Both the position numbers and the translations under genes were made by a program. From Bacteroidia bacterium (GTDB taxonomy: Bacteria; Bacteroidota; Bacteroidia; Bacteroidales; GWF2-35-48), in assembly GCA_016212695.1 (NCBI GenBank), contig JACREX010000210.1, forward strand, positions 912 through 64,911: a DNA stretch of 64,000 nucleotides, read 5' to 3'. Positions 1 through 62,970 of the stretch are shown piece by piece. The stretch's first letter is position 1. The number at the start of each line of letters is the position of its first letter. The notes below the pieces were generated by a model, which saw nothing but the letters and a program-made list of their open reading frames with translations, did no database searches and was not told where the DNA came from.

Positions 1-752
1 GTTCCTGTGTTATAAAAATGAATGCCAATGGCGATACACTTTGGTCGCATATTTTAGGTGGTTCTTATGGCTATAGTATTATTCAAACATTAGATTCTGG
101 TTATGCAGTAAGTGGAAATGCGTCAAATTTTGGATTAATTTTTAAACTTGATTCTTTGGGCAATTCTCAATGGATTGATACTTTAAATCATATTAACCCG
201 AATAAAATTATATTAAGCACAGATAATTGCCTCATTGCATCAGGGTTTCATTGGATAAGTAGTGATATTAATACATATGATACTTGGTTAATGAAAATTA
301 ATATCTATGGAGATACTTTATGGTCAAAACAATTTGGTGTTGCAGGTCGTGATGAATCTAATTCTTTGGGACAGACTTCTGATAATGGGTTCATTATTAT
401 TGGCCGTAGACCTGAAGGGATGCGTGTTTTAAAAGTTAATGAAAACGGAGATTTGCTTTTGTCTGGTGATCTGAACTATTCCGATTGTCCGCCATTGCTT
501 TATAATTATCCAAACCCTTTTTCAGAGTCAACCACAATTTATTTTAGCAAAAACGAAACGGCAGATATTGAAACATCTGCAAATTTTGATGTTTACAATT
601 CAATGGGATTAAAAATCCTCAGTATAAAAATCTCCTTAAGCAGTTTAGAAAACGGTTATTTATTCAATGCTCACAACCTGCCCCCGGATATCTATTTCTA
701 TAAAATTAATCACAACAATAAAATTTTAACTAATAAAATGATAAAATTATGA
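1..752 (+). CDS. Secreted repeat protein with T9SS (Por) C-terminal sorting domain; 5' end lies outside the window
   Basis: The frame is open back to nt 3. It has repeated K-x-N-x-x-GD-x-LW blocks (beta-propeller-like). The C-terminus YNYPNPFSESTTIYF...DIYFYKI fits the Bacteroidota T9SS CTD pattern. The stop overlaps the next start (ATGA at 749). Confidence 0.6.
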   Translation, partial: SCVIKMNANGDTLWSHILGGSYGYSIIQTLDSGYAVSGNASNFGLIFKLDSLGNSQWIDTLNHINPNKIILSTDNCLIASGFHWISSDINTYDTWLMKINIYGDTLWSKQFGVAGRDESNSLGQTSDNGFIIIGRRPEGMRVLKVNENGDLLLSGDLNYSDCPPLLYNYPNPFSESTTIYFSKNETADIETSANFDVYNSMGLKILSIKISLSSLENGYLFNAHNLPPDIYFYKINHNNKILTNKMIKL

Positions 753-3700: not shown

Positions 3701-4324
3701 CTTAAAAATGCCCTGCTTGCGCCCGGCCCTTATCTGACAGACACAGTGCTGATAGCAACCATCAAACGGCCAAGCTCGTTGCCTCCCGGGATACTCAAAA
3801 ATATTATTGTTCCCAACAGCCCCGTTACCGCCAAAGTAATGACAGCCTTAAACACCGTGAACCTGCCAGCCGGAATAAAAGCCGATATACAGGCAGTACA
3901 AACCGGCACATCCGCAAGAGCAATTTTAGAACAGCAGATTTCCGAATTAAAACAGGAAAAAGATTTTAGCGTTTCAGAACTCATGCGTTATTATCTGAAC
4001 GATTCCATTATAAAAATTGACAGCACAATACTTTTCCTCAAAACTCAAACAGATTTAGATTCAAAGAAACAACTTGTACAAGCATATTTATTGAAAAACG
4101 ATTGCAGCAATGCCTCCACAACATTAAATACCTTACCGCAACAAACCGCTGATGATATTGCTTTCAAACAATTCTACTCCATCATGACAACCCTCTGCAC
4201 ACAAAACAAAACCCTGTTTGAACTCACCCCTGCACAGTTGCAAACCATCACTTCAATTGCTGCCTCAACCACTTACAGCAGCAACAACAGATTTACAAGG
4301 CTATTTCAGATTCAAGTTCAATGA
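749..4324 (+). CDS. Peptidase C10 (streptopain/PrtT-like cysteine protease) with signal peptide, Spi-type propeptide and a long beta-helix-like region
   Basis: Signal peptide MKRFFILSLIFLLLLSAHKNFA. Catalytic Cys block GCVPLAMAQIMRYHKFP and His block SHCIVMDGF match C10 peptidases. There is no sorting domain before the stop. Confidence 0.75.
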   Translation: MKRFFILSLIFLLLLSAHKNFAASVSLQTAQAVAIGWYTNYAPPKITDYTVLSSQTVQYSGINTLYIFNFNAGGFVLISADDRMPPIYGYSFTYKVDTTISEHAIALINMYSERSYVDITNNYTNPNASTDWSNAINGIYTRQTPENSFAPLLGTAHSSSWATWSPYFTGAPTYPADHPLLTSNNQGYFPGTQGCVPLAMAQIMRYHKFPITGSGSHTDNVSKTYLSTETNLPVTISGSFSCDFSAQTYNYNNMPYALTYVADPDHGFDELPGITQAQKDEAGKLTYHAGIACDMQWWGIGVDGSHTPQNWATDLETHFKYLPNWQYITPNGATPDGFKDAIRNDIRAGRPVLFRYNSHCIVMDGFELLNFFHKVHGDGGFFDGYFYLFPADNDGIHQILGTSNLQAAIHLEPNPCEVNAYYTQDYNFYGGSLVFWNPINSKRGVNTIHVYTGAQLTINTEVSLLSNAQIIVENGGILNLGSNCKLYNTCNDIWSGNLTIKGGGIVNIQNGAQIYLGGTGKIIVERVGKLIIDGGILTSTSSMWQGIEVWGNPNLVQSDANQGVVELINAATIANAVCGIFAGKSIIDSDGNPATDPAFAGGIVKANGAKFINNQTSISINKFTTNTALNFRSYIKYCEFESNSLNVFSSFVYLSGIDVIKIIGNTFTNTNYSTTNPVSNGFGILSFDANFSVYAGIDNITGNPKPNKFVNLFCGIRAMSSNAMKSFSAQGCEFINISAGIFSTGVNYARIKSNIFDIGLPYEFFSMQNPGMGLYYRGTGFTIEDNEFSSTHNGAIGCIFSGTGSTSNVIYRNRFQNIGVGIQAQKLSNTVSNSGLQIKCNKYISDMTYADVAVASGAIGNPQGLCGSMTTTANNLFSHTSNGVHKDIWVNPDVNPIIYRYYQVGPQSYTQGKVMPWDCANVHLPAFDYNTACPSTLGTSPNPTNLITRIATSNQQLTILSSTIDGGNTQNLLNKIYSNMSPGNLKNALLAPGPYLTDTVLIATIKRPSSLPPGILKNIIVPNSPVTAKVMTALNTVNLPAGIKADIQAVQTGTSARAILEQQISELKQEKDFSVSELMRYYLNDSIIKIDSTILFLKTQTDLDSKKQLVQAYLLKNDCSNASTTLNTLPQQTADDIAFKQFYSIMTTLCTQNKTLFELTPAQLQTITSIAASTTYSSNNRFTRLFQIQVQ

Positions 4325-6707
4325 TTTGATTTTCCTTGACCAAAACGCAAAATACACCTTCGGCATCAAATCAGGTTCAGTTATTCCCCCTTCTCAAGGG
4401 GGAACACAAGGGGGTTCAGAGGGGGTTGTTCAAGATACCATTTTCAAAACCATCGAGCAATGGATTTCTGTAAGCCCGGTAACCCTCACGCTGAAAAAAC
4501 TCACGGCAGGTTTTATCAATGATACCGTTCAATGCTACAACGACACCGTTCATTTCACCAACAAAACCCTGTATGGCAAAACACCTTATACCTACAACTG
4601 GTCATTTGGCGATGGCGGTTTTCTTCCCCCTTCTCAAGGGGGAACACAAGGGGGTTTTGTCAGTCATAAATTCCCCTCCTCCGGTATCTTCCCCGTCACC
4701 CTAATCGCCACTGATGCTCTGGGTTGCAAAGACACTACAATAAAGCAAATTATCATTCCCGAATGCCCCGGTATTTATGGCTATCTTAGCGAGCATGCCG
4801 AATGCGGCGGTTCCCCTGTTATCGGTGATACTCTCTATTTTGTTGATGAATTCGGAAATACTTACGATACTATTTTTGCTGTTACTAATACCACAGGCCA
4901 GTTTACTTTTAATATGTCAAAAGTAAACCAGCTTGACACAACCTATAATTATTCCTTTAAGATTAAAAGCGGTTACGGAATATCACAGATACAATGCAAC
5001 CCAATTAGTTACTGGAAAAATTCATCGCCGCTTTCTTTCATAACCGATCATAAAGAATATTGGACAAGAGATTTTAATATATCCGACAGCGCAATATGTT
5101 CCAATAGTATCATAGACTTAGACCGTAATATTTATGTTGCAGGCACAGCATATTATCCCGGCACAAAACGCGATTATATGCTTATTAAATACAACCCTGT
5201 CGGCGATGAACTCTGGCATATCTCTTACAACCCGACTGGTTTCGGCGATTATACATTAACCGATATGAAAGCCGACAAATCCGGTAACATCATTCTCACA
5301 GGCAAAGGCGATGATGGCGCTGTTACAGCTAAAATTAATACGTCCGGTTCAATAGTTTGGTCAAACACATGGACAGACGATTATTATTTTGGGAGTTCCG
5401 GTTATCTTGCTATTGATACGCTGAATAATATTTACGTCGCTTCTAATGTACTTGACCCTTCCAATCAGTTCTATTTCGCATTAACCAAGTATAATAGCAG
5501 TGGTGAAAAACTTTGGAGCAATGTATATAATACCACATCTATGGTTGTTCGGAATATTATAATAGATAAACTGGGAAATGTAATTGTGTTATGCAACCAG
5601 TCAGTTGATGGAAGTTATATTTTCAAAAATAATTCATCTGGCGTTTTACTTTGGTCTGTGGTTAATTCAAGTAATCTTTTAAAAGCTACTGTCGGAAATG
5701 ACAATTCGGTTTATGCCACTGGTTCGACGATTACGACTAATAACTGGACAGCAATTATTACCGTAAAATATACATCCGCAGGTAGCTCAGAATGGACACA
5801 AACCTATAATTATGAATCTTCACACGTAAATCAATCTGATAATATTCTTGTAGATAAAGACGGCAATATTATTGTTGGTGGTATTGTTACATATTATTCA
5901 ACACAAGGCACAAATGTATATCTTTTACCCAATCGCTATTCAATTATAAAATATAATCCGTCTGGTTCTCAAATCTGGCTAAACTCATTTAGTTTGAATT
6001 CCACGGCAGAAGTTGTTTCACCTCTTTTATCTATGGTGTCAGATATTGCAGGAAATATCTACACAGCGGGTACAAAACAATTTATAGTTACGCTGCCAAG
6101 AACTGGAACTAAGAAAATTTATAATCAGTTCCTCACTGCTAAATTTAATAGCGAAGGTTCATTTGAATGGCTCGAATCCGTTAATACAAACCGGGCTGAT
6201 TACTCTTACCCGCCTGATTTAATTGTAAGCGATAATGAAAATATTTATGTAACCGGAATAACAACCCTTAATGGAGTATATACAATTAAATACGTACAAT
6301 GTCCCTCAAATGCAAATAATGCACGCTATTCACATGCCGGTGATAATACTAATAACTCAACCACAAACGAACAATCGAACAATGAACAATTGAACAACAA
6401 ACACCAAACTTCAAACTCAAAACTTCAAACCTCAAACGAGTTTGTTACAATGTTCCCCAACCCCAACGACGGCAATTTTTATTTCAATTATAATATCCTT
6501 CCCCCTTCTCAAGGGGGAACACAAGGGGGTTCATGCCGCTTTGCTGTATTCGACCAAATCGGGAAGAAAATTTACGATATAGAAATAAAATCCGGCAAAA
6601 ACACAGTCATGATTAATCATAACAATTTCAGCAACGGAGTTTATTACTATCAGGTAACAGCCGGAAACCGTTTAGTTAAAACCGAAAGGCTTGTAATCAC
6701 AAAATAA
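4218..6707 (+). CDS. PKD domain + SBBP-type beta-propeller repeats + T9SS C-terminal sorting domain; probably the frameshifted C-terminal continuation of the C10 protease ORF (true start unclear)
   Basis: No signal peptide at the ORF-track start. PKD signature YNWSFGDG...H..P..G.FPVTLIATD. Many Y.AG/..KYN..G..LW repeats. C-terminal FPNPNDGNFYF...YYYQV...LVITK CTD. It overlaps the upstream ORF by 107 nt in the +1 frame. Confidence 0.6.
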   Translation: MNSPLHSCKPSLQLLPQPLTAATTDLQGYFRFKFNDLIFLDQNAKYTFGIKSGSVIPPSQGGTQGGSEGVVQDTIFKTIEQWISVSPVTLTLKKLTAGFINDTVQCYNDTVHFTNKTLYGKTPYTYNWSFGDGGFLPPSQGGTQGGFVSHKFPSSGIFPVTLIATDALGCKDTTIKQIIIPECPGIYGYLSEHAECGGSPVIGDTLYFVDEFGNTYDTIFAVTNTTGQFTFNMSKVNQLDTTYNYSFKIKSGYGISQIQCNPISYWKNSSPLSFITDHKEYWTRDFNISDSAICSNSIIDLDRNIYVAGTAYYPGTKRDYMLIKYNPVGDELWHISYNPTGFGDYTLTDMKADKSGNIILTGKGDDGAVTAKINTSGSIVWSNTWTDDYYFGSSGYLAIDTLNNIYVASNVLDPSNQFYFALTKYNSSGEKLWSNVYNTTSMVVRNIIIDKLGNVIVLCNQSVDGSYIFKNNSSGVLLWSVVNSSNLLKATVGNDNSVYATGSTITTNNWTAIITVKYTSAGSSEWTQTYNYESSHVNQSDNILVDKDGNIIVGGIVTYYSTQGTNVYLLPNRYSIIKYNPSGSQIWLNSFSLNSTAEVVSPLLSMVSDIAGNIYTAGTKQFIVTLPRTGTKKIYNQFLTAKFNSEGSFEWLESVNTNRADYSYPPDLIVSDNENIYVTGITTLNGVYTIKYVQCPSNANNARYSHAGDNTNNSTTNEQSNNEQLNNKHQTSNSKLQTSNEFVTMFPNPNDGNFYFNYNILPPSQGGTQGGSCRFAVFDQIGKKIYDIEIKSGKNTVMINHNNFSNGVYYYQVTAGNRLVKTERLVITK
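4384..4416 (+). repeat. 33-nt palindromic element, copy 1 (TTCCCCCTTCTCAAGGGGGAACACAAGGGGGTT), in frame, encodes PPSQGGTQGG
   Basis: Exact string match to the copies at 4624 and 6499. CCCCCTT can pair with either of two AAGGGGG arms. Confidence 0.9.
4624..4656 (+). repeat. 33-nt palindromic element, copy 2, inside the GDG...H loop of the PKD domain
   Basis: Exact 33-nt identity with copies 1 and 3, in the same codon phase. The flanks are unrelated. Confidence 0.9.
6499..6531 (+). repeat. 33-nt palindromic element, copy 3, inside the T9SS C-terminal domain
   Basis: Exact 33-nt identity with copies 1 and 2, in the same codon phase. The flanks are unrelated. Confidence 0.9.
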
Positions 6708-6848
6708 TATGTCAAAATCATACATCTGACATAGATATGCAAACCACTGCTGCTTTGTGTGCAGGCGCGTCCACGAACGGCGCGGAAGACAAATTTTCAG
6801 GCCATAACATAAAAAAAAATAAAAAATTCTTTTCTTCACAAAAAACAG

Positions 6849-6856
6849 TATATTTG
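6849..6856 (+). promoter_or_regulatory. Candidate Bacteroidota -7 promoter box (TATATTTG = TAnnTTTG)
   Basis: Motif match only. It lies in an A-rich intergenic stretch, 14 nt upstream of the 21-bp repeat array. Confidence 0.3.
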
Positions 6857-6869
6857 TATCGAAAACTTG

Positions 6870-7142
6870 ACCGCTAGCATAAGAAACATAACCTATAGCA
6901 TGATTAATACGTCCAATAGAATGGAAAACACGACCAATAGCATGAAAAACCTGGCCAATAGCATCAAAAACACGACCCCTGGCATGAATAACATAACCGC
7001 TGGAGCGAATAACATAACTGCCCGCATGAGTAATATATCTGCTAGCATGAAAAACACGACTGCTAGCATGAAAAACACGACTGTTAGCATAAAAAATACA
7101 ACCGGTAGCATAAATAACACGACCGCTGGCATGGTAAATCCA
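6870..7142 (+). repeat. Tandem array of 13 x 21 bp (consensus ACCGCTAGCATGAAAAACACG); open in the + frame as a T-A-S-M-K-N-T heptad
   Basis: The units were read out one by one with no spacers. ORF 6867-7172 (+) and ORF 6893-7132 (-) are both open across the array. Confidence 0.9.
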
Positions 7143-7176
7143 AAATCACTAATCCTAAATCCTAAATTTTAAAAAT

Positions 7177-8079
7177 ATGAACAATACACAACGAGCTAAA
7201 TTAGATTCTTATGACAGAATCAATGAATTTAATGTAAATCATGCAGGCGATGTAGCTTCCATACCCGACTATGCTGCCGAGCAGGGAAAGTTTGAAACAG
7301 ATGTAACTGCAATAAAAAAATCTGCCGCCGCCCAGGAGCAGGATACTAAAGGTAACAAAACGGCAAGCGAAATGGCAAAAGCCGTCATGGCAAACGCAGT
7401 CATAAAATATAGCCTGCGTGCAGCCGCAAAAGCCCGCATAACAGGTAATACAGCGCTTGCCAAACAATTGGAAACGCCTTATTCCTATATCTACAGGGCC
7501 CCTAAAACCACGGCATTACAGCGGGCAAAGAATACGCGCGATGCTATAAATAATAATCTCACTTTGTTCAGCGCTGTCACATCCGGTAATATTACCGAAA
7601 TAGATAATGCAATTACCGCGTATGAAACCATAAAAGACAGCCCCACCCAGGCTAAACAAACTAAAAAAGCCGCAGGCACCGACCCCTTGCACGATTATTT
7701 TAAACATGCCGACGAGGCGCTGGATAATATGTACGACCTCGTATTAAGTTATTATAGCGATACCAAACCTGCAATGGTAAATGAAATGACGCTTGCCAGG
7801 CAAATTTTGAACACAGGTATAAGAACAACCGGCGTAACGTTTAAAACCATTGCCGAAGAAAATAATGAGGTTATTTTAAATGCTTCCGTTACCGATATAA
7901 GCAACGGAAAAGTCTATACTGCCAACGACCATGGATTAATACATATTGATAAACATCGCTCTGGTCATTTCCATTTTACCGTGGCAGCCCCGGACAGGAT
8001 AAAAGTGGATTTTTCAGCCGACATCAAGCAGGGCATGAATAATGAGTTTAACGTAAAACTCCAAAAAACCAAAATCTGA
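7177..8079 (+). CDS. Hypothetical protein: helical Ala/Lys-rich N-terminal half, beta-sandwich-like C-terminal ~90 aa, no signal peptide
   Basis: A 300-aa ORF starting 34 nt after the repeat array. No family was recognised. Confidence 0.5.
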   Translation: MNNTQRAKLDSYDRINEFNVNHAGDVASIPDYAAEQGKFETDVTAIKKSAAAQEQDTKGNKTASEMAKAVMANAVIKYSLRAAAKARITGNTALAKQLETPYSYIYRAPKTTALQRAKNTRDAINNNLTLFSAVTSGNITEIDNAITAYETIKDSPTQAKQTKKAAGTDPLHDYFKHADEALDNMYDLVLSYYSDTKPAMVNEMTLARQILNTGIRTTGVTFKTIAEENNEVILNASVTDISNGKVYTANDHGLIHIDKHRSGHFHFTVAAPDRIKVDFSADIKQGMNNEFNVKLQKTKI

Positions 8080-8188
8080 CCTGAAACCTGTCACATTGAC
8101 GCATGCACTAAAGGTGTTCACGCACACGTGGCTCACGCCAAGTTCGACTGTTCGGTGTTTTGTTTTTAATTAACCCAAAATTCATCAA

Positions 8189-8599
8189 ATGAGAAAAAAA
8201 GTTTATATGTTATTAATATTCGTTTTATTGATTGCGGCAAAGTCTTTTACTCAGAATACCTTGCCTGCAGGCAGGCAGGTTGATCTTGTTGACAAAAGAG
8301 CGCTGAAAATTTATACCATGGATCAGATCAATGAAATGCCCTATTATAAAATTCTTCAGATCAATTATCTTTACATCTCTTCCTATATTATCCCCGACGA
8401 AATGAAAGGCGTCATCAGTCCGGCCGATATTGATATGACTCAATATTTTTTACACAGAAAAGAAAAGGAACGCGTTACGGTGGATCTTGGCATCAACGGT
8501 GAAAAGCGAACCGGAAAATATATTATATTGTTATCATTTCAGGAGGTTAACCTGGCATTTAAAGATATTGAAAATAATAATTGCAATAATAAAAAGTAA
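8189..8599 (+). CDS. Small secreted hypothetical protein
   Basis: Signal peptide MRKKVYMLLIFVLLIAAKSFTQ. 136 aa. It ends 11 nt before the giant adhesin gene. Confidence 0.5.
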   Translation: MRKKVYMLLIFVLLIAAKSFTQNTLPAGRQVDLVDKRALKIYTMDQINEMPYYKILQINYLYISSYIIPDEMKGVISPADIDMTQYFLHRKEKERVTVDLGINGEKRTGKYIILLSFQEVNLAFKDIENNNCNNKK

Positions 8600-48484: not shown

Positions 48485-49342
48485 ATGAGTAACGGAGAAC
48501 AAAATATTAATTGGGATTTATCAATAAGGCCCAAGAAAAATCTGTTGGATATTAACCTGAAAGAACTGTGGAGATACAAGGATCTGATTATGCTTTTTGT
48601 TCGCAGAGATTTTGTTTCCAAATATAAGCAGAGTATTTTAGGTCCCGCATGGTTTATAATACAACCCTTACTGACAACATTAATGTTTACTTTAGTATTT
48701 GGAAAAATAGCGGGAATACCAACCGACGGGCTTCCTCCAATGCTTTTTTATATGACAGGGATTGTCGGCTGGACATATTTTTCAACCTGCTTAACCGCCA
48801 CGTCTGATACCTTTATTTCAAATGCCGGAATATTTGGGAAGGTGTATTTTCCAAGATTGGTTTCTCCTGTTTCCATTGTTATTTCTAATTTAATCCAGTT
48901 TGCAATACAATTTTCTTTCCTTATTGCATGTATGATTTTTTATTGGCTTTCCGGTGCAAAATTCACCCCCAATATTTATGTTTTGTTAATCCCTGTTTTA
49001 ATTGTTTTATTAGCCGGCCTTAGCCTTGGTTTTGGAATTATTTTTTCATCGCTTACCACGAAGTATCGCGATTTGCGTTTTTTGCTTGTGTTTGGCGTCC
49101 AGCTCTGGATGTATGCAACTCCGATAATTTACCCCGTTTCGGCGTTGCCGGAAAAATATAAAATTTTTATTATAGCCAATCCTATGTCGTCCATTATAGA
49201 AATATTCAGATACTCATTACTCGGTTCCGGAACAATTAACTGGTTTCAACTGGGCTATAGCGCTGTTTTCACATTGGTGATTCTGGTTATCGGAGTTCTT
49301 GTTTTCAATAAAGTCGAACGCACATTTATGGATACGGTTTAA
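48485..49342 (+). CDS. wzm: ABC-2 type polysaccharide export permease
   Basis: Six TM segments. The N-terminal LKELWRYKDLIMLFVRRDFVSKYKQSILGPAWFIIQP signature is typical of Wzm/TagG permeases. Confidence 0.8.
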   Translation: MSNGEQNINWDLSIRPKKNLLDINLKELWRYKDLIMLFVRRDFVSKYKQSILGPAWFIIQPLLTTLMFTLVFGKIAGIPTDGLPPMLFYMTGIVGWTYFSTCLTATSDTFISNAGIFGKVYFPRLVSPVSIVISNLIQFAIQFSFLIACMIFYWLSGAKFTPNIYVLLIPVLIVLLAGLSLGFGIIFSSLTTKYRDLRFLLVFGVQLWMYATPIIYPVSALPEKYKIFIIANPMSSIIEIFRYSLLGSGTINWFQLGYSAVFTLVILVIGVLVFNKVERTFMDTV

Positions 49343-49388
49343 TCATCGGATCACCACATCAAATAATCAGCACATATCCGCGTAAAAT

Positions 49389-50051: not shown

Positions 50052-51146
50052 ATGATCCCATTCATGGACCTGGATTTACAGTATAAATCAATACAGGAAG
50101 AAATTGACGAAGCCATTTTCAGGGTTATAAAAAATTATAATTTTATTAATGGGCCGGAAGTTGCCCTGTTTGAAAAAAAATTTGCCGAAATGCAGGAAGT
50201 GAAATACTGTGTCGGTTGCTCAAGCGGGACATCTGCGCTGCATCTTGCTTATGAGGTTGTCGGTATTCGGCCGGGCGATGAAGTTATTGTTCCGACTATG
50301 ACTTTTATTGCTACCGCAGAAGCATTAAGGCAGGTAGGAGCAAAACCTGTATTTATAGATATCAGCCCGGTTTCATATAATATTGACGAGAATAAAATTG
50401 AAGCCGCAATTACCGATAAAACAAAAGCGATAGTAGCGGTTCATCTGCATGGAAACCCCTGTGAAATGGATAGAATTGTTGAGATTGCAAAAAAATATAA
50501 TCTTAAACTTATTGAAGATTGCGCCCAGTCGCACATATCAGAATATAAGTTTAAAAAAACCGGAACATTCGGCGATATTGCAGCCTTTAGTTTTTATCCG
50601 GGTAAAAATCTGGGCGCTTATGGCGATGCCGGTGCTGTCGTAACAAATAATCGCAGGTACTTCGAAAATGCCCGTATGCTCGCAAATCATGGGAGAAAAG
50701 AAAAATATTATCACGATGTTGAAGGATATAATTACAGATTAGATACGTTACAGGCCGCCATTTTACTTATTAAAATGAAATATTTGCAACAATGGACAGA
50801 ACAAAGAATTTTAAATTCGCAACTATATGATAAAATGTTAAAAAATCCGGATATAACACTTCCTGAAAGATCACAGTACAAAAAACATGTTTACCACATT
50901 TATTCTATTTCTACAAAACAGCGGGAAAAAATTATTACCGCGCTGAAAGAAAATCATATTTCTTACGGCATTCATTACCCGCTTCCATTGCACCTGCAGC
51001 CGGCATACAGGCATCTTGGATATAAAGACGGCGACTTTCCGGTAGCAGAAGCATTGTCAAAAGAATTTTTATCTTTACCCATGTATGCCGAGCTTACCAA
51101 AGAACAAATTGAATTCATCGGGAATGTTGTGAAAATTCTGTTATAA
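50052..51146 (+). CDS. DegT/DnrJ/EryC1/StrS family sugar aminotransferase (FdtB/QdtB-like)
   Basis: PLP-enzyme blocks FE..FA......Y.VG.SSGT.ALHLA and SFYPGKNLGAYGDAG (Schiff-base Lys). 364 aa. Confidence 0.8.
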   Translation: MIPFMDLDLQYKSIQEEIDEAIFRVIKNYNFINGPEVALFEKKFAEMQEVKYCVGCSSGTSALHLAYEVVGIRPGDEVIVPTMTFIATAEALRQVGAKPVFIDISPVSYNIDENKIEAAITDKTKAIVAVHLHGNPCEMDRIVEIAKKYNLKLIEDCAQSHISEYKFKKTGTFGDIAAFSFYPGKNLGAYGDAGAVVTNNRRYFENARMLANHGRKEKYYHDVEGYNYRLDTLQAAILLIKMKYLQQWTEQRILNSQLYDKMLKNPDITLPERSQYKKHVYHIYSISTKQREKIITALKENHISYGIHYPLPLHLQPAYRHLGYKDGDFPVAEALSKEFLSLPMYAELTKEQIEFIGNVVKILL

Positions 51147-51226
51147 TTTTTTTCTATTTTTCCTGCAAAATTTGAAAATTAATTTTTATGATGCAGCATA
51201 AAATTAGATATTTTTGATTTAATACA

Positions 51227-52414
51227 ATGCTGTACAGAAAATTATATTTTGACATATTACCCCAGCTTAAACATAAAAATGCTATTGTTATTTGTGGAAT
51301 GAGGCAGGTGGGAAAAACCACGTTGATGCGTCAGATTTATGAAATAACAGGCAATCCCAAATTATGGTTTGACTTTGACAATCCCCTCGACAGGATATTA
51401 TTTGAAGCGGAAGATTATAACCTGATTTTTCATGAATTGAAAAAACTGGCACAGGCAAAAGCAAAAGATAAACTAACGGTTTTTATTGATGAAATACAGA
51501 ATTTTCCTGAAATAACAATTATCATAAAGTATTTGATTGATCATCATCAGGTAAAATTTATTTTAACAGGTTCTTCAAATTATTATTTACGCAACCTGTT
51601 TCCGGAATCTTTAAGCGGTAGAAAGTTTCTGTATATACTACCACAGCTTTCATTTACGGAGTTTTTGTATTTTAATGGAGAAGTCCCGGAAAAAATAATT
51701 TCTGATACAGATAATAAAATATCATTCGAAAAAATATCACAGTATTCTTATTCAAAGCGCGCTTTAGCCTTTGACGAATTTATAGAATTCGGCTCATTTC
51801 CTGAAGTTGTGCTTACAAACGATCGAAAAACAAAAACACTGATTTTAAAAAATATATTTTCGTCTTTTTTTAAAAAGGATATTAATGTGTTTTCTGAGTT
51901 TAAGGAAGTTAGGGAATTACGTGATCTTATTTTATTATTGGCTCCCAGGAACGGAAGTATTCTTGATATAACAAAGTTAGCCTCAGAGCTAGGTACAAAC
52001 AGGGTAAAAGTTTACAATTATATTGAATTTCTGCAGGGAACTTTTTTCCTGAAATTAATACCTAAATTTTCAAAAAGTATAGACAGAAGCATAGCCGGAG
52101 GGAAAAAAGTATATTTTTCCGATACGGGCATATTAAATCTTGTAGCAAAAGTTACGGAAAGACAATTGATAGAAACCGCTGTATGTAATCAGTTGGCTGT
52201 TTATGGGAACCTGTCTTTTTATAATAAAAGGAGTACTTCTGAAATTGATTTTATTATCAATAACGAAATTGCTTTTGAAGTGAAGAACAAAGCAGACGTA
52301 TCGGATATTGAAAGGCTAAGGAAAATATCATCTTCTCTTGGAATTAGACGGTATTATGTTTTGAGCCGGAAATATTTTGACCATGAAAATGTAATATTTC
52401 CCCAGTTTATTTAA
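51227..52414 (+). CDS. AAA+ ATPase of the AAA_14/DUF4143 type
   Basis: Walker A GMRQVGKTTL, Walker B VFIDEIQ, and a C-terminal EIDFII...FEVK PD-(D/E)xK-like tail typical of DUF4143 proteins. It is unrelated to glycan synthesis. Confidence 0.7.
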   Translation: MLYRKLYFDILPQLKHKNAIVICGMRQVGKTTLMRQIYEITGNPKLWFDFDNPLDRILFEAEDYNLIFHELKKLAQAKAKDKLTVFIDEIQNFPEITIIIKYLIDHHQVKFILTGSSNYYLRNLFPESLSGRKFLYILPQLSFTEFLYFNGEVPEKIISDTDNKISFEKISQYSYSKRALAFDEFIEFGSFPEVVLTNDRKTKTLILKNIFSSFFKKDINVFSEFKEVRELRDLILLLAPRNGSILDITKLASELGTNRVKVYNYIEFLQGTFFLKLIPKFSKSIDRSIAGGKKVYFSDTGILNLVAKVTERQLIETAVCNQLAVYGNLSFYNKRSTSEIDFIINNEIAFEVKNKADVSDIERLRKISSSLGIRRYYVLSRKYFDHENVIFPQFI

Positions 52415-52472
52415 TTTTTTTATATTAAAACATCAAAATTTCAGATAATAAATACATCAAAACATTAAAAAA

Positions 52473-53087
52473 GTGATCACAATTCTCAACTACGGCCTGG
52501 GCAATCTGTTTTCCATTAAAAATATGTTGAAGAGGGTAGGTTTCGATTGCATAATTACTGCGAATATTGAAGAAGTAGAGCGGGCGACAAAAATTATTTT
52601 ACCGGGCGTAGGTCATTTCGATTATGGGATGAAAAAGCTAAGGGAAGCAATTTTTTTTGAAACATTGCAAAGAAAGGCGATGGATGAAAAAACACCTGTT
52701 CTGGGTATTTGCATGGGAGCGCAGATGCTTCTGGAGAAAAGCGAGGAGGGTACGGAAAATGGCCTGGGCTGGATTAAAGGAGTATGTAAAAAATTTGATA
52801 TTTTAAAAATGAACGAGCCGCTAACCATTCCAAATATGGGCTGGTGCGATGTGAATTATGTTAAAGAATCGCCGCTGAATGTAAATATAAACAAAATACC
52901 GCGTTACTATTTTGTTCATTCATTTCATATAAATTGCACAAATCCAAACGATGTATTAGCCACAACGGAATATGGATATACATACACGGCTGCCGTTAAC
53001 AAAGAAAATATTTACGGAGTACAATTTCATCCCGAAAAAAGTCATAAATTCGGAATGGCTGTTTTAGAAAATTTTGCTCAATTATAA
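52473..53087 (+). CDS. HisH-like glutamine amidotransferase (WbuY-type, glycan-locus paralog)
   Basis: GTG start. LPGVGHF, GICMGAQML (catalytic Cys) and QFHPEKS motifs. Confidence 0.75.
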   Translation: MITILNYGLGNLFSIKNMLKRVGFDCIITANIEEVERATKIILPGVGHFDYGMKKLREAIFFETLQRKAMDEKTPVLGICMGAQMLLEKSEEGTENGLGWIKGVCKKFDILKMNEPLTIPNMGWCDVNYVKESPLNVNINKIPRYYFVHSFHINCTNPNDVLATTEYGYTYTAAVNKENIYGVQFHPEKSHKFGMAVLENFAQL

Positions 53088-53846
53088 ATGCGAAGAATAC
53101 GAGTTATACCCACGTTGCTGATTCAAAACGGAGGTTTGGTTAAAGGCAAAAACTTTAAAAACCACCAGTATGTCGGAGATCCTATCAATTCTGTCAGGAT
53201 TTTTAACGAAAAAGAAGTTGATGAACTGGCCATTATTGATATATCGGCTACCAAACAAAGAAAAGTCCCGAATATTATTCAAATTGCAGAAATTGCATCA
53301 GAAGCCTTCATGCCCTTGTCTTATGGCGGTGGAATAACAAATCTGGAACAAGCCGACCAGATTTTTTTTAATGGAATTGAAAAAGTAATATTAAATTATT
53401 CTGCAGTTAATAATCCTGTATTAATAACTCAAATTGCAAATAAATATGGAAACCAGAGCGTGGTGGCGAGCATGGATGTGAAAAAAAACTGGTCGGGCAA
53501 AACTAGTGTTTACACAGGGTGTGGAAATGAAAATACAAAAAAGAATCCGGTGCAGTTTGCAAGAGAATGCGAAAGCCGCGGTGCGGGAGAAATTTTATTA
53601 ACATCCGTTGATCGTGAAGGAACCTATATGGGGTATGATATAATCCTGATAAGAGAGATTTGCAATGCCGTTTCTGTCCCGGTGATTGCAAATGGAGGAG
53701 CAGGCGGCATTAACCATTTTAAAGAGGCAATTGCAAATGGAGCATCCGCAGTGGCTGCCGGTAATATGTTTATCTACCAGCGTCCGCGTAATGCAGTTTT
53801 AATCAGTTATTTGAATCAGCAGGAAATAAATTCATTAAGGATTTAA
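53088..53846 (+). CDS. HisF-like cyclase subunit (WbuZ-type, glycan-locus paralog)
   Basis: RVIPTLLI...G.LVKG..F, DE(L)AIIDI, GGGI and GA..V..G blocks of the HisF (beta/alpha)8 barrel. The ATG follows directly after the hisH-like stop. Confidence 0.75.
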   Translation: MRRIRVIPTLLIQNGGLVKGKNFKNHQYVGDPINSVRIFNEKEVDELAIIDISATKQRKVPNIIQIAEIASEAFMPLSYGGGITNLEQADQIFFNGIEKVILNYSAVNNPVLITQIANKYGNQSVVASMDVKKNWSGKTSVYTGCGNENTKKNPVQFARECESRGAGEILLTSVDREGTYMGYDIILIREICNAVSVPVIANGGAGGINHFKEAIANGASAVAAGNMFIYQRPRNAVLISYLNQQEINSLRI

Positions 53847-53865
53847 TACTATTGATTTGTTTCAT

Positions 53866-53979
53866 AATGAATTACCAGATTTGTTCAAAATGTATAAAAA
53901 ATGTTTGCATACAAACCTTGAAAATGCCCAATGGCTCGAAGACAGATTAGTAAATATTCCAAGTAGTGTAAGAATATGA
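53866..53979 (+). pseudogene. Orphan 3' end (last ~37 codons) of a DegT-type aminotransferase gene; copy R1 of a three-copy repeat
   Basis: Reads NELPDLFKMYKKCLHTNLENAQWLEDRLVNIPSSVRI*. Positions 53890-53979 align without gaps to 62270-62359 with about 6-7 mismatches in 90 nt, by eye. It keeps the same ATGA stop/start overlap. Confidence 0.8.
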
Positions 53980-55409
53980 TCAATACTATTCCTGATATAA
54001 TAAAGCAAGGCGAGGGTGTTTCTGTAGAATTTAAGAAAACAGGTCGTCAACTTCCTGAAAATATTTTTGATACAATTTGTGCTTTTTTAAATCGGAATGG
54101 TGGAACTATTTTATTAGGGGTCAATGATGATAAAACCATTGAAGGTGTTGATGAAAATCAAGCTGTGATATTTTGCAAAAATATTGCCAATTTAAGCAAT
54201 AATCCTCAAAAACTATATCCCTCTTTTCTTATTGAGCCACAAATTGTTTTATATAAAAAGAAAACACTTATTTCTATTTTTGTTCCTATATCATCGCAAG
54301 TACATAAATGCAATGGTAAAATATTTGACAGGAGTGTTGATGGTGATTTTGAACTTAAATCAGATAAGCAAATAATGAATTTATATACTCGGAAGAATTC
54401 GCTGTATTCTGAAAATACAATTTATCCGTTTTTAAAAGAAAAGGATTTTAAACCAGGGATTGTTGAAAAATCTAGAAAGCTTATAAAACTAAACAGATCT
54501 GATCATCCATGGAATGATCTTTCAAATAAGGAGTTTTTTAATACCTCAGGCTTATTTCGAAAAGACCTTGCAACGGGTATCACCGGATTTACTTTGGCCT
54601 CATTACTTTTGTTCGGTAAAGATGAAATTATTCGAAGTGCCATTCCACATTACAAGACAGACGTATTGTTGCGCAGGGTTGACACTGACAGGTACGATGA
54701 TCGTGAAAATATCCGGTGCAATCTGATTGATGCCTATGAGAAATTAATGAACTTTATTGAAAAACATTTACCGGATAAGTTCTTTATGGAAGGTACTCAA
54801 CGCATTTCGTTACGCGATAAAATCTTTCGTGAAATTGTTGCAAATATTATTATTCACAGAGAATATACGAATGCTTACCCTGCTTCTCTTATAATTTTTA
54901 AGGATAGGGTTGAAACTGTAAACGCAAATAAACCACATGTCTTTGGGCAATTATTACCTGGTAATTTTACTCCTTTCCCGAAAAATCCAAATATTGCACA
55001 ATTATTCACTCAAATGGGCCGTTCTGAAGAACTGGGAACCGGAATAAGAAATGTATTTAAATATTCAAAGGCTTATTCCGGCAGCGAAAATATTGTTTTT
55101 AAAGAAGAGGATAATTTTATTGGAATAGTTCCATTAAGTGTGAAGTTAGATAATACCAGTAGTAATAATGGGGGATTAAATGGGGGATTAAATGGGGGAT
55201 TAAATGGGGGATTAAATGGGGGGTTAAAAGAGAATATAGTTATTGTTAAAACATATATTTATAAGCATCCAGGCAAAAAAACAATTGAAATTGCTGAAGC
55301 TACCCACATCCCTTTCAAAACACTTGAGAAATGGCTGAAAAAACTAAAAGATGCAGGCATAATTGAATTCAGGGGTAGTAAGAAAACAGGTGGTTATTTT
55401 GCATTGTAA
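53976..55409 (+). CDS. AlbA_2 (Schlafen-like) DNA-binding domain protein with an ATPase-like central region and C-terminal wHTH (RecG-like putative regulator family)
   Basis: N-terminal GEGVSVEFKKT....ICAFLNRNGGTILLGVNDDKTIEGV AlbA_2 signature. C-terminal KKTIEIAEATHIPFKTLEKWLKKLKDAGIIEFRGSKKTGGY winged helix. Confidence 0.6.
   Translation: MINTIPDIIKQGEGVSVEFKKTGRQLPENIFDTICAFLNRNGGTILLGVNDDKTIEGVDENQAVIFCKNIANLSNNPQKLYPSFLIEPQIVLYKKKTLISIFVPISSQVHKCNGKIFDRSVDGDFELKSDKQIMNLYTRKNSLYSENTIYPFLKEKDFKPGIVEKSRKLIKLNRSDHPWNDLSNKEFFNTSGLFRKDLATGITGFTLASLLLFGKDEIIRSAIPHYKTDVLLRRVDTDRYDDRENIRCNLIDAYEKLMNFIEKHLPDKFFMEGTQRISLRDKIFREIVANIIIHREYTNAYPASLIIFKDRVETVNANKPHVFGQLLPGNFTPFPKNPNIAQLFTQMGRSEELGTGIRNVFKYSKAYSGSENIVFKEEDNFIGIVPLSVKLDNTSSNNGGLNGGLNGGLNGGLNGGLKENIVIVKTYIYKHPGKKTIEIAEATHIPFKTLEKWLKKLKDAGIIEFRGSKKTGGYFAL
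55170..55229 (+). repeat. 12-bp tandem repeat x5 (GGGGGATTAAAT) encoding (GGLN)4-GGLK linker
   Basis: Read directly from the sequence. Four perfect units plus one variant. The position was anchored by codon counting from the ORF stop. Confidence 0.9.
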
Positions 55410-55466
55410 AATGCACAATGGCTCGAAGACAGATTAATAAATATTCCGAGTAGCGTGAGAATATAA
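55410..55466 (+). repeat. Copy R2 of the aminotransferase 3'-end repeat (NAQWLEDRLINIPSSVRI*)
   Basis: Starts right after the AlbA_2 gene stop, in frame with it. It has 3 mismatches to 62303-62359, and the terminal ATGA has changed to ATAA. Confidence 0.85.
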
Positions 55467-55592
55467 GAGCTGGCAGTGATAAAACAGGTTATTGAAAATT
55501 AAAAGTCAACTATAAAAATTAATTGGTACATTGAGTAACCGAATAATCCCCCATCAATTAATCATCACATCAGCACATTTCCAAATTAAATA

Positions 55593-56870
55593 ATGAACAC
55601 CGTAATCCAGATAATAAACGTCTCCAAGCAATACCGCTTAGGCCAGATTGGAACAGGAACCATTTCCAATGATTTTAAGCGATGGCTTTTCAAAACATTT
55701 AAGAACGAAGACCCTTTTGCACGTGTTGGCTCAGAAAATACACTAAATATAAAAGGCGGAGACTATGTGTGGGCGCTTAAAGATATTAACATGGAAGTGA
55801 AACAGGGTGAAGTACTTGGTATTATCGGTAAAAACGGAGCCGGTAAATCTACCTTGTTAAAAATATTATCGCGTGTTACGGGTCCTACTACTGGTGAAAT
55901 TAATATTAAAGGCCGTGTTGCCAGCCTGCTCGAAGTTGGCACAGGTTTTCACCCTGAACTCACAGGCCGAGAAAACATATTTCTTAATGGAGCTATACTG
56001 GGTATGACAAAAGCTGAAATAAAAAATAAATTTGATGAAATAGTTGATTTTTCTGGTGTTGAAAAATACATTGATACTCCTGTTAAGCGTTATTCCAGCG
56101 GCATGTATGTGCGCCTGGCTTTTGCTGTCGCCGCTCATCTTGACCCGGAAATATTAATTATTGATGAAGTGCTGGCAGTTGGAGATTCAGAGTTTCAAAA
56201 AAAATGTCTTGGGAAAATGCAGAAAGTCGCAGGACAGGGAAGAACTGTGTTGTTTGTAAGCCATAATATGTATGCAATTAAACAATTATGTAAACGTTGT
56301 ATATTAATCAAAAATGGAAATATAATTGCAAACGATGAACCAAATATAATAACAGAAATATATTTAAATGATACACTAATTGAAGCAAATGTTGCAGAAA
56401 GAAAATTTCAAGATGATGAAACAAAAGAATTCCAATTATTAACAGTACGTCTTTTAAATAATAATAATGAAGTAACTCAATATTTTAATTGTGATGAAGT
56501 TGTTTCTATAGAATTTACATTTAAAACAAAATGCAAATTACCTGATTTATATGGTTGTATTTCGATTTATGATAAAGAAAATTTACCTATTTTATCTTCG
56601 TATTCTTTAGATATTAATCCGGATTGTCTTTATTTTTTGGAATCAGGCATTTATAAAACATGTATTAATATCCCTCCACGAACTCTTGGACATGGGAAAT
56701 ATTCTGTTATTATGGGATTTGCTTCACCACAATCAATTAATCAAACTTATTTTACAAATCAATATGTTTGTTCGTTTGAATTAAATGATATTAAAACAAC
56801 TGTTGGCAATAAAAGAGTAGGATATTTTAGCACTTTATTAAATTGGAATATAATAAAGATCAGTAATTAA
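55593..56870 (+). CDS. wzt: Polysaccharide ABC exporter ATP-binding protein with C-terminal glycan-binding-type extension
   Basis: Walker A GKNGAGKST, signature YSSGM, Walker B ILIIDE. The ~170-aa C-terminal beta-rich extension resembles Wzt proteins that recognise a modified chain end. Confidence 0.8.
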   Translation: MNTVIQIINVSKQYRLGQIGTGTISNDFKRWLFKTFKNEDPFARVGSENTLNIKGGDYVWALKDINMEVKQGEVLGIIGKNGAGKSTLLKILSRVTGPTTGEINIKGRVASLLEVGTGFHPELTGRENIFLNGAILGMTKAEIKNKFDEIVDFSGVEKYIDTPVKRYSSGMYVRLAFAVAAHLDPEILIIDEVLAVGDSEFQKKCLGKMQKVAGQGRTVLFVSHNMYAIKQLCKRCILIKNGNIIANDEPNIITEIYLNDTLIEANVAERKFQDDETKEFQLLTVRLLNNNNEVTQYFNCDEVVSIEFTFKTKCKLPDLYGCISIYDKENLPILSSYSLDINPDCLYFLESGIYKTCINIPPRTLGHGKYSVIMGFASPQSINQTYFTNQYVCSFELNDIKTTVGNKRVGYFSTLLNWNIIKISN

Positions 56871-61216: not shown

Positions 61217-62359
61217 ATGTTTAGCAATGAAATAAATTTTGTCAGGGAGATATATAAAACAAAGGATTTTATCCCACTTCACGCTCCTGTTTTTTCAGGC
61301 AATGAGAAAAAATATCTGAACGAATGTATTGATACAACGTTTGTTTCATACGTAGGTCGTTTTGTCTCTCTTTTTGAAGAAAAAATTGCAACATACACAG
61401 GTGCAAAATATGCTGTTGCAGTAGTTAATGGAACATGCGCCCTTGAAATCGCGTTAAAGCTTTGCGGCGTGAAACCCGGCGACGAAGTACTTACGCAGGC
61501 GCTCACATTTGTGGCTACCTCAAACGCTATAGCTTATTGTGGGGCAAATCATGTTTTTATTGATTCTGAAAAGCAAAACATGGGAATGAGTCCAGAGAAA
61601 CTCGAAGAATTTTTAAGGCAATTTGCCGAGATCAGAAACGATGGTTTTTGCTACAACAAAAAAACAAACAATAAAATTACAGCATGTGTTCCAGTGCATA
61701 TTTTTGGCCACCCATGTCTGATAGATAAAATAAATAACATATGCAATAAGTATAACATTGTCGTAGTTGAAGATGCCGCTGAATCCATTGGCAGCAAATA
61801 TTGCGGTAAGCATACAGGCACTTTCGGAAAAGCTGCCATATTGAGTTTTAATGGCAATAAAACCATTACAACCGGTGGCGGCGGAATGATTATTACCGAT
61901 GATGAACAACTCGCTAAAAAAGCAAAATACATTACCACAACTGCAAAAGTTCCGCATCCATACGAATTTTTTCATGATGAATTAGGATATAATTATCGTA
62001 TGACAAATGTGAATGCCGCCATTGGTTGCGCACAAATGGAAAAATTAGATGAGTATATTGCAAATAAAAGAGAAACTGCTATTTTATATAAAGAGTTTTT
62101 TACAAAACAGGGTATAGAATTTTTTACTGAAAAAGAAAATTGTTTTTCAAATTACTGGCTCAATATAATTTTTTTAAAAGACAGAAATCAACGTGATGAA
62201 TTTTTAAAATACACAAATGATAATGGTGTGATGACACGACCTGCATGGACACTCATGAACAAATTACCGATGTATAAAAATTGTCTGCATACAAATCTTG
62301 AAAATGCACAATGGCTCGAAGACAGATTAGTAAATATTCCGAGTAGTGTGAGAATATGA
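61217..62359 (+). CDS. DegT family aminotransferase (PglE/LegC/PseC-like); its 3' end is repeat copy R3
   Basis: PLP-aminotransferase blocks, including SFNGNKTITTGGGGMI (Lys). 380 aa. ATGA overlap with the next gene. Confidence 0.8.
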   Translation: MFSNEINFVREIYKTKDFIPLHAPVFSGNEKKYLNECIDTTFVSYVGRFVSLFEEKIATYTGAKYAVAVVNGTCALEIALKLCGVKPGDEVLTQALTFVATSNAIAYCGANHVFIDSEKQNMGMSPEKLEEFLRQFAEIRNDGFCYNKKTNNKITACVPVHIFGHPCLIDKINNICNKYNIVVVEDAAESIGSKYCGKHTGTFGKAAILSFNGNKTITTGGGGMIITDDEQLAKKAKYITTTAKVPHPYEFFHDELGYNYRMTNVNAAIGCAQMEKLDEYIANKRETAILYKEFFTKQGIEFFTEKENCFSNYWLNIIFLKDRNQRDEFLKYTNDNGVMTRPAWTLMNKLPMYKNCLHTNLENAQWLEDRLVNIPSSVRI

Positions 62360-62970
62360 ATTTGAAAAAAAAGGAAAATATTATCTTAATTGGTGGCGGT
62401 GGACACTGCAAATCAGTGATTGACGTAATCGAATCAGCAGGTTTATTTCAGATTGCCGGTATTATTGATATAAAAGAGAATATCGGGAAGAAAGTATTAA
62501 ACTATGAAATTATCGGGACTGATGATGATTTGCCAACGCTAATAAAATCATATCAAAATTATCATATTGCTGTTGGTCATATAAAATCGAACAAAAACAG
62601 AATAGCCTTATATGATAAGGTTAAATTACTGAATGGGAATTTCCCGGTAATAATTTCGTTTACGGCTTATGTGTCAAAACATGCAGAGATAGGCGCGGGA
62701 ACTATTATCATGCATCATGCAATAGTTAATGCAGGCGCAAAAATCGGATGCAATACCATAATTAATACAAAAGCCATGGTTGAGCACGATGCTGTTATTG
62801 GGAATCATTGCCACATTTCTACTGGTGCAATAATAAACGGTGGAGTTGAAGTAGGCGATAATACTTTCTTTGGTAGCGGCGCCGTTAGCAAACAATATAT
62901 TAAAATTCCTGAAAATAGTTTTATCAAAGCAAATTCAGTTGTGAAAGTCGAATCACAAGATGAAAAATAA
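62356..62970 (+). CDS. NeuD/PglD family sugar N-/O-acetyltransferase
   Basis: N-terminal Rossmann-like IILIGGGGHCKSVIDVIE followed by hexapeptide repeats. 204 aa. Confidence 0.75.
   Translation: MNLKKKENIILIGGGGHCKSVIDVIESAGLFQIAGIIDIKENIGKKVLNYEIIGTDDDLPTLIKSYQNYHIAVGHIKSNKNRIALYDKVKLLNGNFPVIISFTAYVSKHAEIGAGTIIMHHAIVNAGAKIGCNTIINTKAMVEHDAVIGNHCHISTGAIINGGVEVGDNTFFGSGAVSKQYIKIPENSFIKANSVVKVESQDEK

Follow-up and report, generated by a model that had tools for sequence, protein, structure and literature searches.

A gene for a 477-residue AlbA_2 protein stands between two direct repeats of the end of a legC gene in DNA from a Bacteroidia bacterium, and it looks like a mobile cassette without a recombinase, of a type so far described only for restriction-modification (R-M) genes. 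The stretch analysed, called the window below, comprises 64,000 nucleotides (nt) of the forward strand of contig JACREX010000210.1 (positions 912–64,911, assembly GCA_016212695.1); the source is a groundwater metagenome. The native legC gene, which encodes a LegC-type aminotransferase, lies downstream of the cassette and is followed by neuD. We lean slightly towards a history in which the cassette, a single open reading frame (ORF), was inserted in the 3′ end of legC with a long target duplication that left about the last 57 nt of the gene on both sides. The anatomy of the cassette, its recurrence in independent lineages, a family-wide excess of repeats made of host-gene ends and the lack of a shared site or hairpin were all observed directly.

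Copies of the legC end on both sides of the AlbA_2 gene

The last 57 nt of legC occur three times on the forward strand with no more than three mismatches, at positions 53,923–53,979 (R1), 55,410–55,466 (R2) and 62,303–62,359 (R3). The first-pass annotation of the window had described these three copies, with R3 as the native one (62,270–62,359), and 100 shuffles that preserved the dinucleotide composition gave no match. Three mismatches separate R1 from R3, and likewise R2 from R3; between R1 and R2 there are six, and the repeat that they form around the AlbA_2 gene measures 57–59 nt at 91% identity. R1 matches R3 without gaps over 90 nt (53,890–53,979 and 62,270–62,359, 93% identity). The start previously given to R1, at 53,866, is plausible without being secure: beyond 53,890 the similarity amounts to nine of 12 nt (53,866–53,877) past a 12-nt insertion, with the peptide NELP[DLFK]MYK corresponding to NKLPMYK. 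The placement of R2 directly after the AlbA_2 stop codon was correct for 55,410–55,466, but the BLAST boundaries are 55,408–55,464, and the AA of the TAA stop codon thus lies within the repeat.

The stop codon of the aminotransferase gene is the exact end of all three copies. As had been read earlier from the same sequence, the final ATGA of R1 provides the AlbA_2 start codon (53,976), the ATGA of R3 provides that of neuD (62,356), and R2 ends in ATAA, with TAA in place of TGA. The DNA specific to the insert extends from 53,980 to 55,407. The insert is precise to the ORF, which shares 4 nt with the repeat at the left junction and 2 nt at the right one. Among the 38 ORFs of the window that were tested, the AlbA_2 gene alone had a flanking direct repeat.

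R1 and R2 carry nine substitutions against R3, seven of them synonymous (expected proportion about 18.5%, P = 2e-4); the two copies therefore diverged inside working legC genes and not by neutral decay of a local duplicate. The first-pass annotation had opposed to a mobile cassette an ancient duplication of the legC–neuD segment followed by decay. Such a duplication in situ, or an assembly artefact at the repeat, could account for three copies in one locus, and an independent assembly (k=31) of this groundwater sample does break at R1 and R3. This explanation is hardly credible, however: neuD-like sequence was not found after R1 or R2, the synonymous bias rejects neutral decay, and the AlbA_2 gene is complete in length and belongs to a large family. 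The k=31 assembly contains every gene at 100% identity and breaks at R1, R3 and a 12-bp tandem repeat within the AlbA_2 gene, the first two breaks occurring because both copies hold one common 31-mer; the depth is even (12–15x) over all pieces. The same architecture was also seen in many independent assemblies and in a finished plasmid. An exact-protein look-up returned no identical AlbA_2 or LegC protein; the independent assembly breaks inside both genes. More generally, gene-end remnants of this kind interrupt short-read assemblies and are liable to be annotated wrongly as small ORFs.

Two further details of the repeat edges can be mentioned. A small palindrome, TGCATT-GTAA-AATGCA, spans the junction of the AlbA_2 stop codon and R2 (55,400–55,415), with one arm in the end of the cassette and the other in the repeat. 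The stretch upstream of R1 (53,853–53,877) resembles 61,963–61,987 at 76%, and an origin by internal deletion was considered for it; the similarity was put down to chance, an unrelated third site matching equally well.

A second insertion at the legC–neuD junction

In the closest relatives of legC (45–69% identity, from many phyla), neuD usually follows directly after legC, and none of 80 genome loci of these relatives contained an AlbA_2 gene or an extra legC end. The first-pass annotation had proposed looking for the repeat in other genomes. A degenerate pattern of the repeat, scanned over metagenome contigs, returned eight loci, one of which (L089, from an unrelated metagenomic lineage) carries an AlbA_2-family gene between the copies. 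The order in L089 is legC (1267–2403, 65% identity), 24 nt, a gene with AlbA_2, HATPase_c_4 and HTH domains (2428–3810), a legC remnant and neuD. The remnant is a 107-nt copy of the legC end (3818–3924, 84%), and the AlbA_2-family gene is 23% identical to that of the window. This layout was present in all 10 places examined in this lineage, in metagenome-assembled genomes from NCBI and in ENA and Logan assemblies (the lineage comprises 19 contigs); in L086, of the same lineage, legC is followed by the same AlbA_2 gene and the contig ends before the remnant. To judge from the distant family members, the shared gene end and the legC tails of 57 versus 107 nt, the window and L089 are independent events.

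The remnant in L089 forms an open frame of 37 codons (3811–3930) whose ATG overlaps the AlbA_2 stop codon (TAATG). It has gained a GGCTA-N5-TAGCC hairpin (fold z = −3.3), absent from the native copy. Its left edge and that of R1 seem to coincide, with the nine of 12 nt noted above as the basis for R1 beyond 53,890. A second bracket is found in L089, where a 61-nt copy of the neuB 5′ end (4499–4559, 79%) directly follows neuD, 3.8 kb ahead of the intact neuB gene, whose matching 5′ end lies at 8334–8394. Between the two neuB copies are a DUF1016/YhcG nuclease gene (PADLOC candidate PDC-S02), an unknown gene, a formyltransferase gene and a GNAT-like gene. It is the same type of bracket, placed round a multi-gene block.

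Flanking repeats across the AlbA_2 family

The genomic contexts of close homologues (60–68% identity) were chosen regardless of repeats, and every ORF of at least 120 amino acids (aa) in 114 loci was tested by a same-strand BLAST comparison (E ≤ 1e-4) of the 350 nt before it with the 350 nt after it. Flanking direct repeats were found at 19 of 28 family ORFs, against 11 of 1348 other ORFs (0.8%). When independent intact family genes were counted, the proportion was nine of 11 against the same 11 of 1348 (Fisher P = 2e-16). The repeats are 38–153 nt long and mostly correspond to the 5′ or 3′ end of the adjacent gene, which is usually a glycan gene (Table 1).

These counts bear on a simple explanation, in which the duplicated legC ends are scars left by ordinary homologous or illegitimate exchange in mosaic glycan loci and the AlbA_2 gene is a passenger. 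The locus is indeed a patchwork, in which fdtA is a pseudogene, 6.2 kb separate wzm from wzt, one hisH/hisF pair is an orphan and the G+C content ranges from 23 to 39%, and the neuB remnant of L089, at the edge of a 3.8-kb multi-gene block, indicates that gene-end remnants are not limited to AlbA_2. Passive scarring is nevertheless quite unlikely, given the 0.8% of other genes with repeats in the same loci compared with nine of 11 independent AlbA_2 genes, the presence of two distant family members at the same legC end and the existence of a plasmid-borne case, L117, in which no glycan genes surround the cassette.

Other genes are found in similar settings. AAA_14/DUF4143 genes (PDC-S01) accompany the AlbA_2 gene in four loci and are bracketed too in L092 (644–1897, 116-nt repeats) and L093 (642–1808, 147-nt repeats). 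The window AAA_14 gene shows a weak 42-nt similarity between AT-rich spacers, the one after degT1 (51,144–51,183) and the one after the gene itself (52,412–52,453), at 74%. The L094 array (500–8004) consists of a DUF4258/DUF2283 pair, a DUF4062-HATPase_c_4-winged helix gene, a broken AlbA_2 gene and an intact one; its separators are 170–250-nt intergenic repeats rich in GAAC-type words, a non-coding repeat type. In L117, an ORF6N-domain gene lies beside the AlbA_2 cassette with a decayed second copy before it (6809–7337 and 7740–8275; 71–88%).

Absence of a common recombination site

The first-pass annotation offered two readings of the bracket, a cassette exchanged by recombination or a minimal mobile unit with att-like sites. 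A discrete, repeat-bracketed cassette does lie at a gene boundary, and it recurs both in L089 and across the family; exchange by recombination corresponds to the Campbell-type course considered below, and the att-like reading was not borne out. The repeats correspond to a different host-gene end at each locus (the 3′ ends of legC and of an epimerase gene, the 5′ ends of CapD-like, GT2 and ugd genes), and since the repeat sequence differs from locus to locus there is no sequence-specific att site. As candidates for attC-type hairpins, the regions of R1 and R2 show no stronger folding than shuffled sequences on either strand (z = −0.45 to −1.3). Over about 13 kb upstream and 18 kb downstream of the cassette, none of the called genes was seen to encode an integrase or transposase, as had been noted earlier for the window, and no recombinase domain was found in the AlbA_2 protein.

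It is very improbable, then, that R1 and R2 are the attL and attR of a site-specific element whose recombinase is encoded elsewhere or is the AlbA_2 protein itself. The exact boundaries of the insert would suit such an element, as would a homologue on a Legionella plasmid that is directly followed by a site-specific integrase gene. Against it stand the repeats, which are simply the end of whichever gene is adjacent, the lack of a hairpin and the lack of a recombinase in the surrounding DNA (about 13 kb upstream and 18 kb downstream) or among the protein domains.

Proposed origin of the cassette

We propose that an AlbA_2 gene entered the end of a LegC-type aminotransferase gene and that about 57 nt of the gene end were duplicated in the process. 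R1 would represent the end of the target gene, the body of which would have been lost later, and R2 would be the downstream duplicate. The cassette probably arrived with a mosaic block of 6.2 kb now located between wzm and wzt. It is co-oriented with a long glycan operon led by a NusG/UpxY gene, and its expression probably occurs by operon read-through; the overlap between the AlbA_2 start codon and the stop codon of the remnant ORF makes translational coupling possible. The flanking repeats would then allow loop-out of the RecA type, re-integration or exchange at any homologous gene end. In this model the repeats probably arose at insertion rather than by a single crossover of a circle carrying a gene-end fragment. 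The anatomy and the recurrence together suggest that the cassette has been mobile, and it may still be able to move.

Several observations weigh against this history. An empty site with a single repeat copy, which the first-pass annotation had suggested looking for, was not found for any case: the search with the L089 LegC protein (19 contigs) returned the insert-bearing form at all 10 places, and neither the L105 GT2 protein nor a megablast of the Bacteroides ovatus plasmid (L117) region led to a cassette-free relative. Junctions of legC and neuD without insert were found at family level only (45–69% identity). Because no empty site was found, insertion as opposed to deletion, and target duplication itself, are not demonstrated. 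The excised circles and deletion variants that the annotation had also envisaged were not seen, nor was an alternative joint, in the assembled contigs of the source run (contigs, not reads). The identities of the repeats range from 82 to 97% and never reach 100%, and none of the insertions therefore seems recent. An intact legC adjoins neither R1 nor R2 in the window, and an extra deletion must be assumed. R1 and R2 have no common derived change relative to R3, each being nearer to R3 (three differences) than to the other (six), a pattern that fits two separate recombinations with legC2-like sequence at least as well as a single duplication. The k=31 assembly supports each junction but not the pairing of the arms, and the way in which the arms of R1 and R3 are paired rests on the window's own assembly. 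Finally, the homologue on the Legionella adelaidensis plasmid NZ_LR134418.1 (L116, 4980–7753; 48.5% identical) has no flanking repeat and ends exactly at the start of the site-specific integrase gene.

Some of the same features could be explained by integration of the Campbell type. A circle carrying the AlbA_2 gene and about 57 nt of the legC end, looped out from an earlier R–AlbA_2–R arrangement, would have entered a resident legC 3′ remnant by a single RecA crossover, and the repeats would be substrates of recombination instead of a product of the insertion. R1 is longer (90–114 nt) than R2 (57–59 nt) and its left part is more diverged, as if a short copy borne by the element had entered a longer resident remnant. 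All repeats end precisely on a start or stop codon of the host, where homology between donor and recipient operons would end; most of the differences are synonymous, as expected of alleles of working genes; and tandem arrays such as those of L105 and L093 would form easily by repeated integration at one homologous site. However, homology alone cannot reach new gene ends (legC, epimerase, CapD-like, GT2 and ugd), and a founding event independent of homology would be needed each time; several repeats are short and, in L105, only 82–87% identical, which makes them a poor substrate for RecA; and no circle or empty site was seen. We regard this course as possible, if on the unlikely side. Target duplication and single-crossover integration may also have acted in succession.

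The target-duplication model can be extended further, in a direction that we consider unlikely. The genes with AlbA_2, HATPase_c_4 and winged helix domains, and probably also those of PDC-S01 and PDC-S02, would be selfish cassettes of ORF size and without a recombinase that colonise operons. They would enter at gene boundaries with a long duplication of the host-gene end, especially in the surface-glycan operons of Bacteroidota. The encoded nuclease would provoke the break or rearrangement that installs the cassette, and the repeats would provide a cycle of excision, amplification and re-integration. Kobayashi reportedly made a similar proposal for restriction enzymes, in which the enzyme itself provokes the break or rearrangement that installs its gene.

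The AlbA_2 protein

The N-terminal region of the 477-aa protein matches PF04326 (SLFN_AlbA_2) over residues 13–122 with 55.0 bits, against a Pfam cut-off of 25.3. The match to PF13749 (HATPase_c_4) is just below threshold (24.4 bits, cut-off 26); homologues at 60–68% identity carry this domain. The AlphaFold2 model has a mean predicted local distance difference test (pLDDT) score of 59 and a predicted template modelling (pTM) score of 0.31, and its central domain is too poor for an ATPase function to be read. The C-terminal winged helix was modelled better (residues 414–476, pLDDT about 83) and gave Foldseek matches to MarR-type and other winged helices; homologues match HTH_24 or HTH_11.

More than 2,300 relatives aligned over the full length of the protein in one search, the best being 68% identical, and most named sources were Bacteroidota. 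These genes, very common in that phylum, are labelled "RecG-like" and routinely annotated as regulators or helicases. Residues E13, E18 and D51 do not vary among 30 homologues, nor do they in distant members (27–30% identity). The nuclease site of AlbA_2 domains is made of three to four acidic residues, and bacterial AlbA_2 domains are associated with defence systems (PMC12680541). By their spacing and by comparison with this literature, E13, E18 and D51 may correspond to the published catalytic residues (PMC12680541). Foldseek returned weak matches to the N-terminal domains of SLFN12, SLFN13 and SLFN5, and a stronger one to the uncharacterised homologue 3LMM. The conserved acidic residues make the protein a candidate Schlafen-like nuclease, and the Foldseek matches, obtained with a low-confidence model, agree with this.

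In PADLOC 2.0 no model covers the architecture over its full length, and only weak partial matches were obtained, to domains that occur in fusion with pAgo and SIR2-PNTD proteins (E = 2.6e-6 and 3.8e-4). Genes of two PADLOC candidate families, AAA_14/DUF4143 and DUF1016, adjoin members of the AlbA_2 family in several loci. A role in defence or of the addiction type is plausible because of the acidic residues, the Foldseek matches and these neighbouring candidates taken together. A profile scan of viral contigs returned no relative of the family, which is accordingly not phage-borne in that collection.

A 12-bp tandem repeat encodes the linker that precedes the winged helix. Analogous perfect 12-bp arrays, each unit coding for four residues, occupy the same place in L089 (3571–3637), L093 (7179–7248) and L116 (6194–6278). 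The units differ: GGLN in the window, VVDN, GGLS/N, and AAGGCATGAGTC in Legionella. The four members come from different lineages. Depending on the sample, the protein of the L089 lineage is 448, 456 or 460 aa long, which indicates that the copy number of the array changes in nature.

The surrounding locus

From a NusG-like gene to beyond the end of the window, all the genes are glycan genes with a common orientation. The genes wzm and wzt are normally neighbours; here they are separated by the 6.2-kb block, which contains in order an FdtC-like acetyltransferase gene, an FdtB-like aminotransferase gene, the AAA_14 gene, hisH1, hisF1, R1, the AlbA_2 gene and R2 (Table 1). The AAA_14/DUF4143 gene, with its PDC-S01 match, lies 1.5 kb upstream of the AlbA_2 gene.

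Downstream, a complete legionaminic-acid set has its own WbuX, HisH and HisF genes. hisH1 and hisF1 are without a WbuX-type partner, the second complete set being located past the window (L003). The two HisH/HisF-type amidotransferase pairs (window 52,473–53,846 and L003 7524–9047) are 36–39% identical. Because the WbuX-like partner occurs only with the downstream pair, the upstream pair looks like the leftover of another locus.

The spacers after wzm (49,339–49,379) and before wzt (55,558–55,582) have short words in common, with 21 nt at 86%; 0.3% of random windows score equally high. This gives weak support to a duplicated spacer bracketing the entire 6.2-kb block.

Table 1. Features of the window and of the loci with AlbA_2-family genes (window coordinates unless a locus is named).
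Feature	Position or locus	Strand	Flanking repeat	Remarks
wzm (ABC-2 permease)	48,485–49,342	+		Parted from wzt (55,593–56,870) by the 6.2-kb mosaic block
AAA_14/DUF4143 ATPase gene	51,227–52,414	+		PADLOC candidate PDC-S01; second non-glycan single gene of the block
hisH1 and hisF1 (AglZ/HisF2 acetamidino-modification pair)	52,473–53,846	+		Directly upstream of R1
R1, orphan 3′ remnant of a LegC-type aminotransferase gene	53,866–53,979	+		Secure from 53,890
Cassette gene (AlbA_2, HATPase_c_4-like, C-terminal winged helix; COG2865 type)	53,976–55,409	+		477 aa, intact
12-bp tandem repeat (GGLN x4 and GGLK)	55,167–55,228	+		Linker before the winged helix
R2, second copy of the last 57–59 nt of legC	55,408–55,466	+		Starts inside the AlbA_2 stop codon
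Spacer between R2 and wzt, 126 nt	55,467–55,592	+		No neuD similarity; last ~40 nt weakly like the post-wzm spacer (49,339–49,379)
wzt (ABC ATPase with Wzt_C domain)	55,593–56,870	+		First gene past the mosaic block
LegC-family aminotransferase gene, native	61,217–62,359	+		TIGR04181, 549.3 bits (curated cut-off 420)
R3	62,270–62,359	+		Last 90 nt of native legC; 57-nt core 62,303–62,359
NeuD/PglB-family acetyltransferase gene	62,356–62,970	+		Start given by the ATGA overlap with legC
AlbA_2-family locus	L092		129 nt, 90%	5′ end of the downstream Polysacc_synt_2 gene
AlbA_2-family locus	L108		153 nt, 91.5%	3′ end of an epimerase-like gene; stop codon in the downstream copy
Three tandem AlbA_2 genes	L105		38–46 nt scored	A GT2 gene lies after the array, and a copy of its 5′ end precedes each AlbA_2 gene
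AlbA_2-family locus	L093		147 nt at 94%, 300 nt at 97%	Pieces of ugd lie between and around two AAA_14 genes, an HTH gene and the AlbA_2 gene
Two family genes	L094		93 and 144 nt	Intergenic repeats between the two genes
Finished Bacteroides ovatus plasmid	L117		77 nt, 90%	3′ end of the upstream gene
Legionella plasmid	L116		None	AlbA_2 gene adjoins an integrase gene

Comparison with known systems

To our knowledge, no explanation has been given so far for the presence of AlbA_2 genes inside biosynthetic operons, and insertion with long target duplication has received almost no attention since 2010. The present analysis gives the AlbA_2 family a concrete and testable signature of mobility, and it suggests that this type of insertion operates beyond R-M genes. 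The signature points to a route by which defence-type genes could nest in glycan loci, that is, in phage-receptor loci, and the repeated gene ends are ready substrates there for deletion, duplication and cassette exchange.

The nearest known parallel is the "insertion with long target duplication" of R-M gene complexes, inferred by genome comparison (Nobusato et al. 2000, Gene 259:99; Furuta, Abe & Kobayashi 2010, NAR 38:2428, PMC2853133). It leaves direct repeats of 46–423 bp, involves no mobility gene and proceeds by an unknown mechanism; the repeats often span a start or a stop codon, so that the target gene survives (PMC2853133). Furuta et al. (2010) considered direct repeats of more than 30 bp and inserts below 20 kb without a linked mobility gene; in the window the repeats measure 57–59 nt and the insert 1.43 kb, again without such a gene. 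In both systems the genes are of the defence type, the repeats (46–423 bp there, 38–153 nt here) far exceed the target duplications of transposons, integrase and transposase are absent, and flanking repeats are in statistical excess over average genes. The cargo differs, a single AlbA_2/HATPase_c_4/winged helix gene taking the place of R-M genes: the process is analogous and the class of cargo is new. The hosts here are mostly Bacteroidota and the targets mostly genes of glycan operons, the window insert is precise to the ORF, and serial arrays occur at one site (L105, L093). The R-M cases are defined by comparison with an empty site, whereas mobility is deduced here from anatomy and recurrence, and in the window the target gene itself has been lost.

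The protein resembles the AlbA_2 nuclease domains of Schlafen, SAMD9 and Avs9 proteins (PMC12680541) in its N-terminal PF04326 domain and in E13, E18 and D51, which are spaced like the acidic catalytic residues. Unlike these proteins, it has no STAND NTPase, SIR2 or TPR module; in place of the Avs9 and Schlafen architectures it combines AlbA_2, a GHKL-like domain, a linker of variable four-residue repeats and a winged helix. The family was also compared with two other modes of gene gain. The layout is that of Campbell-type integration, where an insert lies between two copies of a fragment and an intact gene is kept if the fragment includes the gene end; that mode needs a pre-existing circle with homology to the target, whereas here one subfamily uses several gene ends and no circle or replicon was seen. 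Like integron cassettes, the AlbA_2 genes are promoter-less, co-oriented single ORFs, sometimes in tandem arrays, of the defence or toxin type; in contrast to them, they have no attC hairpin, no IntI and no common site, and their repeats are copies of host coding sequence. We know of no activity or phage phenotype for a protein with the AlbA_2, GHKL-like and winged helix architecture.

In the literature searched, no description was found of such a process in the AlbA_2 family, of its recurrence at the legC end or of its concentration in glycan operons. The process of insertion with long target duplication is already known; its link to the AlbA_2 family, the recurrence at the legC end and the concentration in glycan operons are apparently new.

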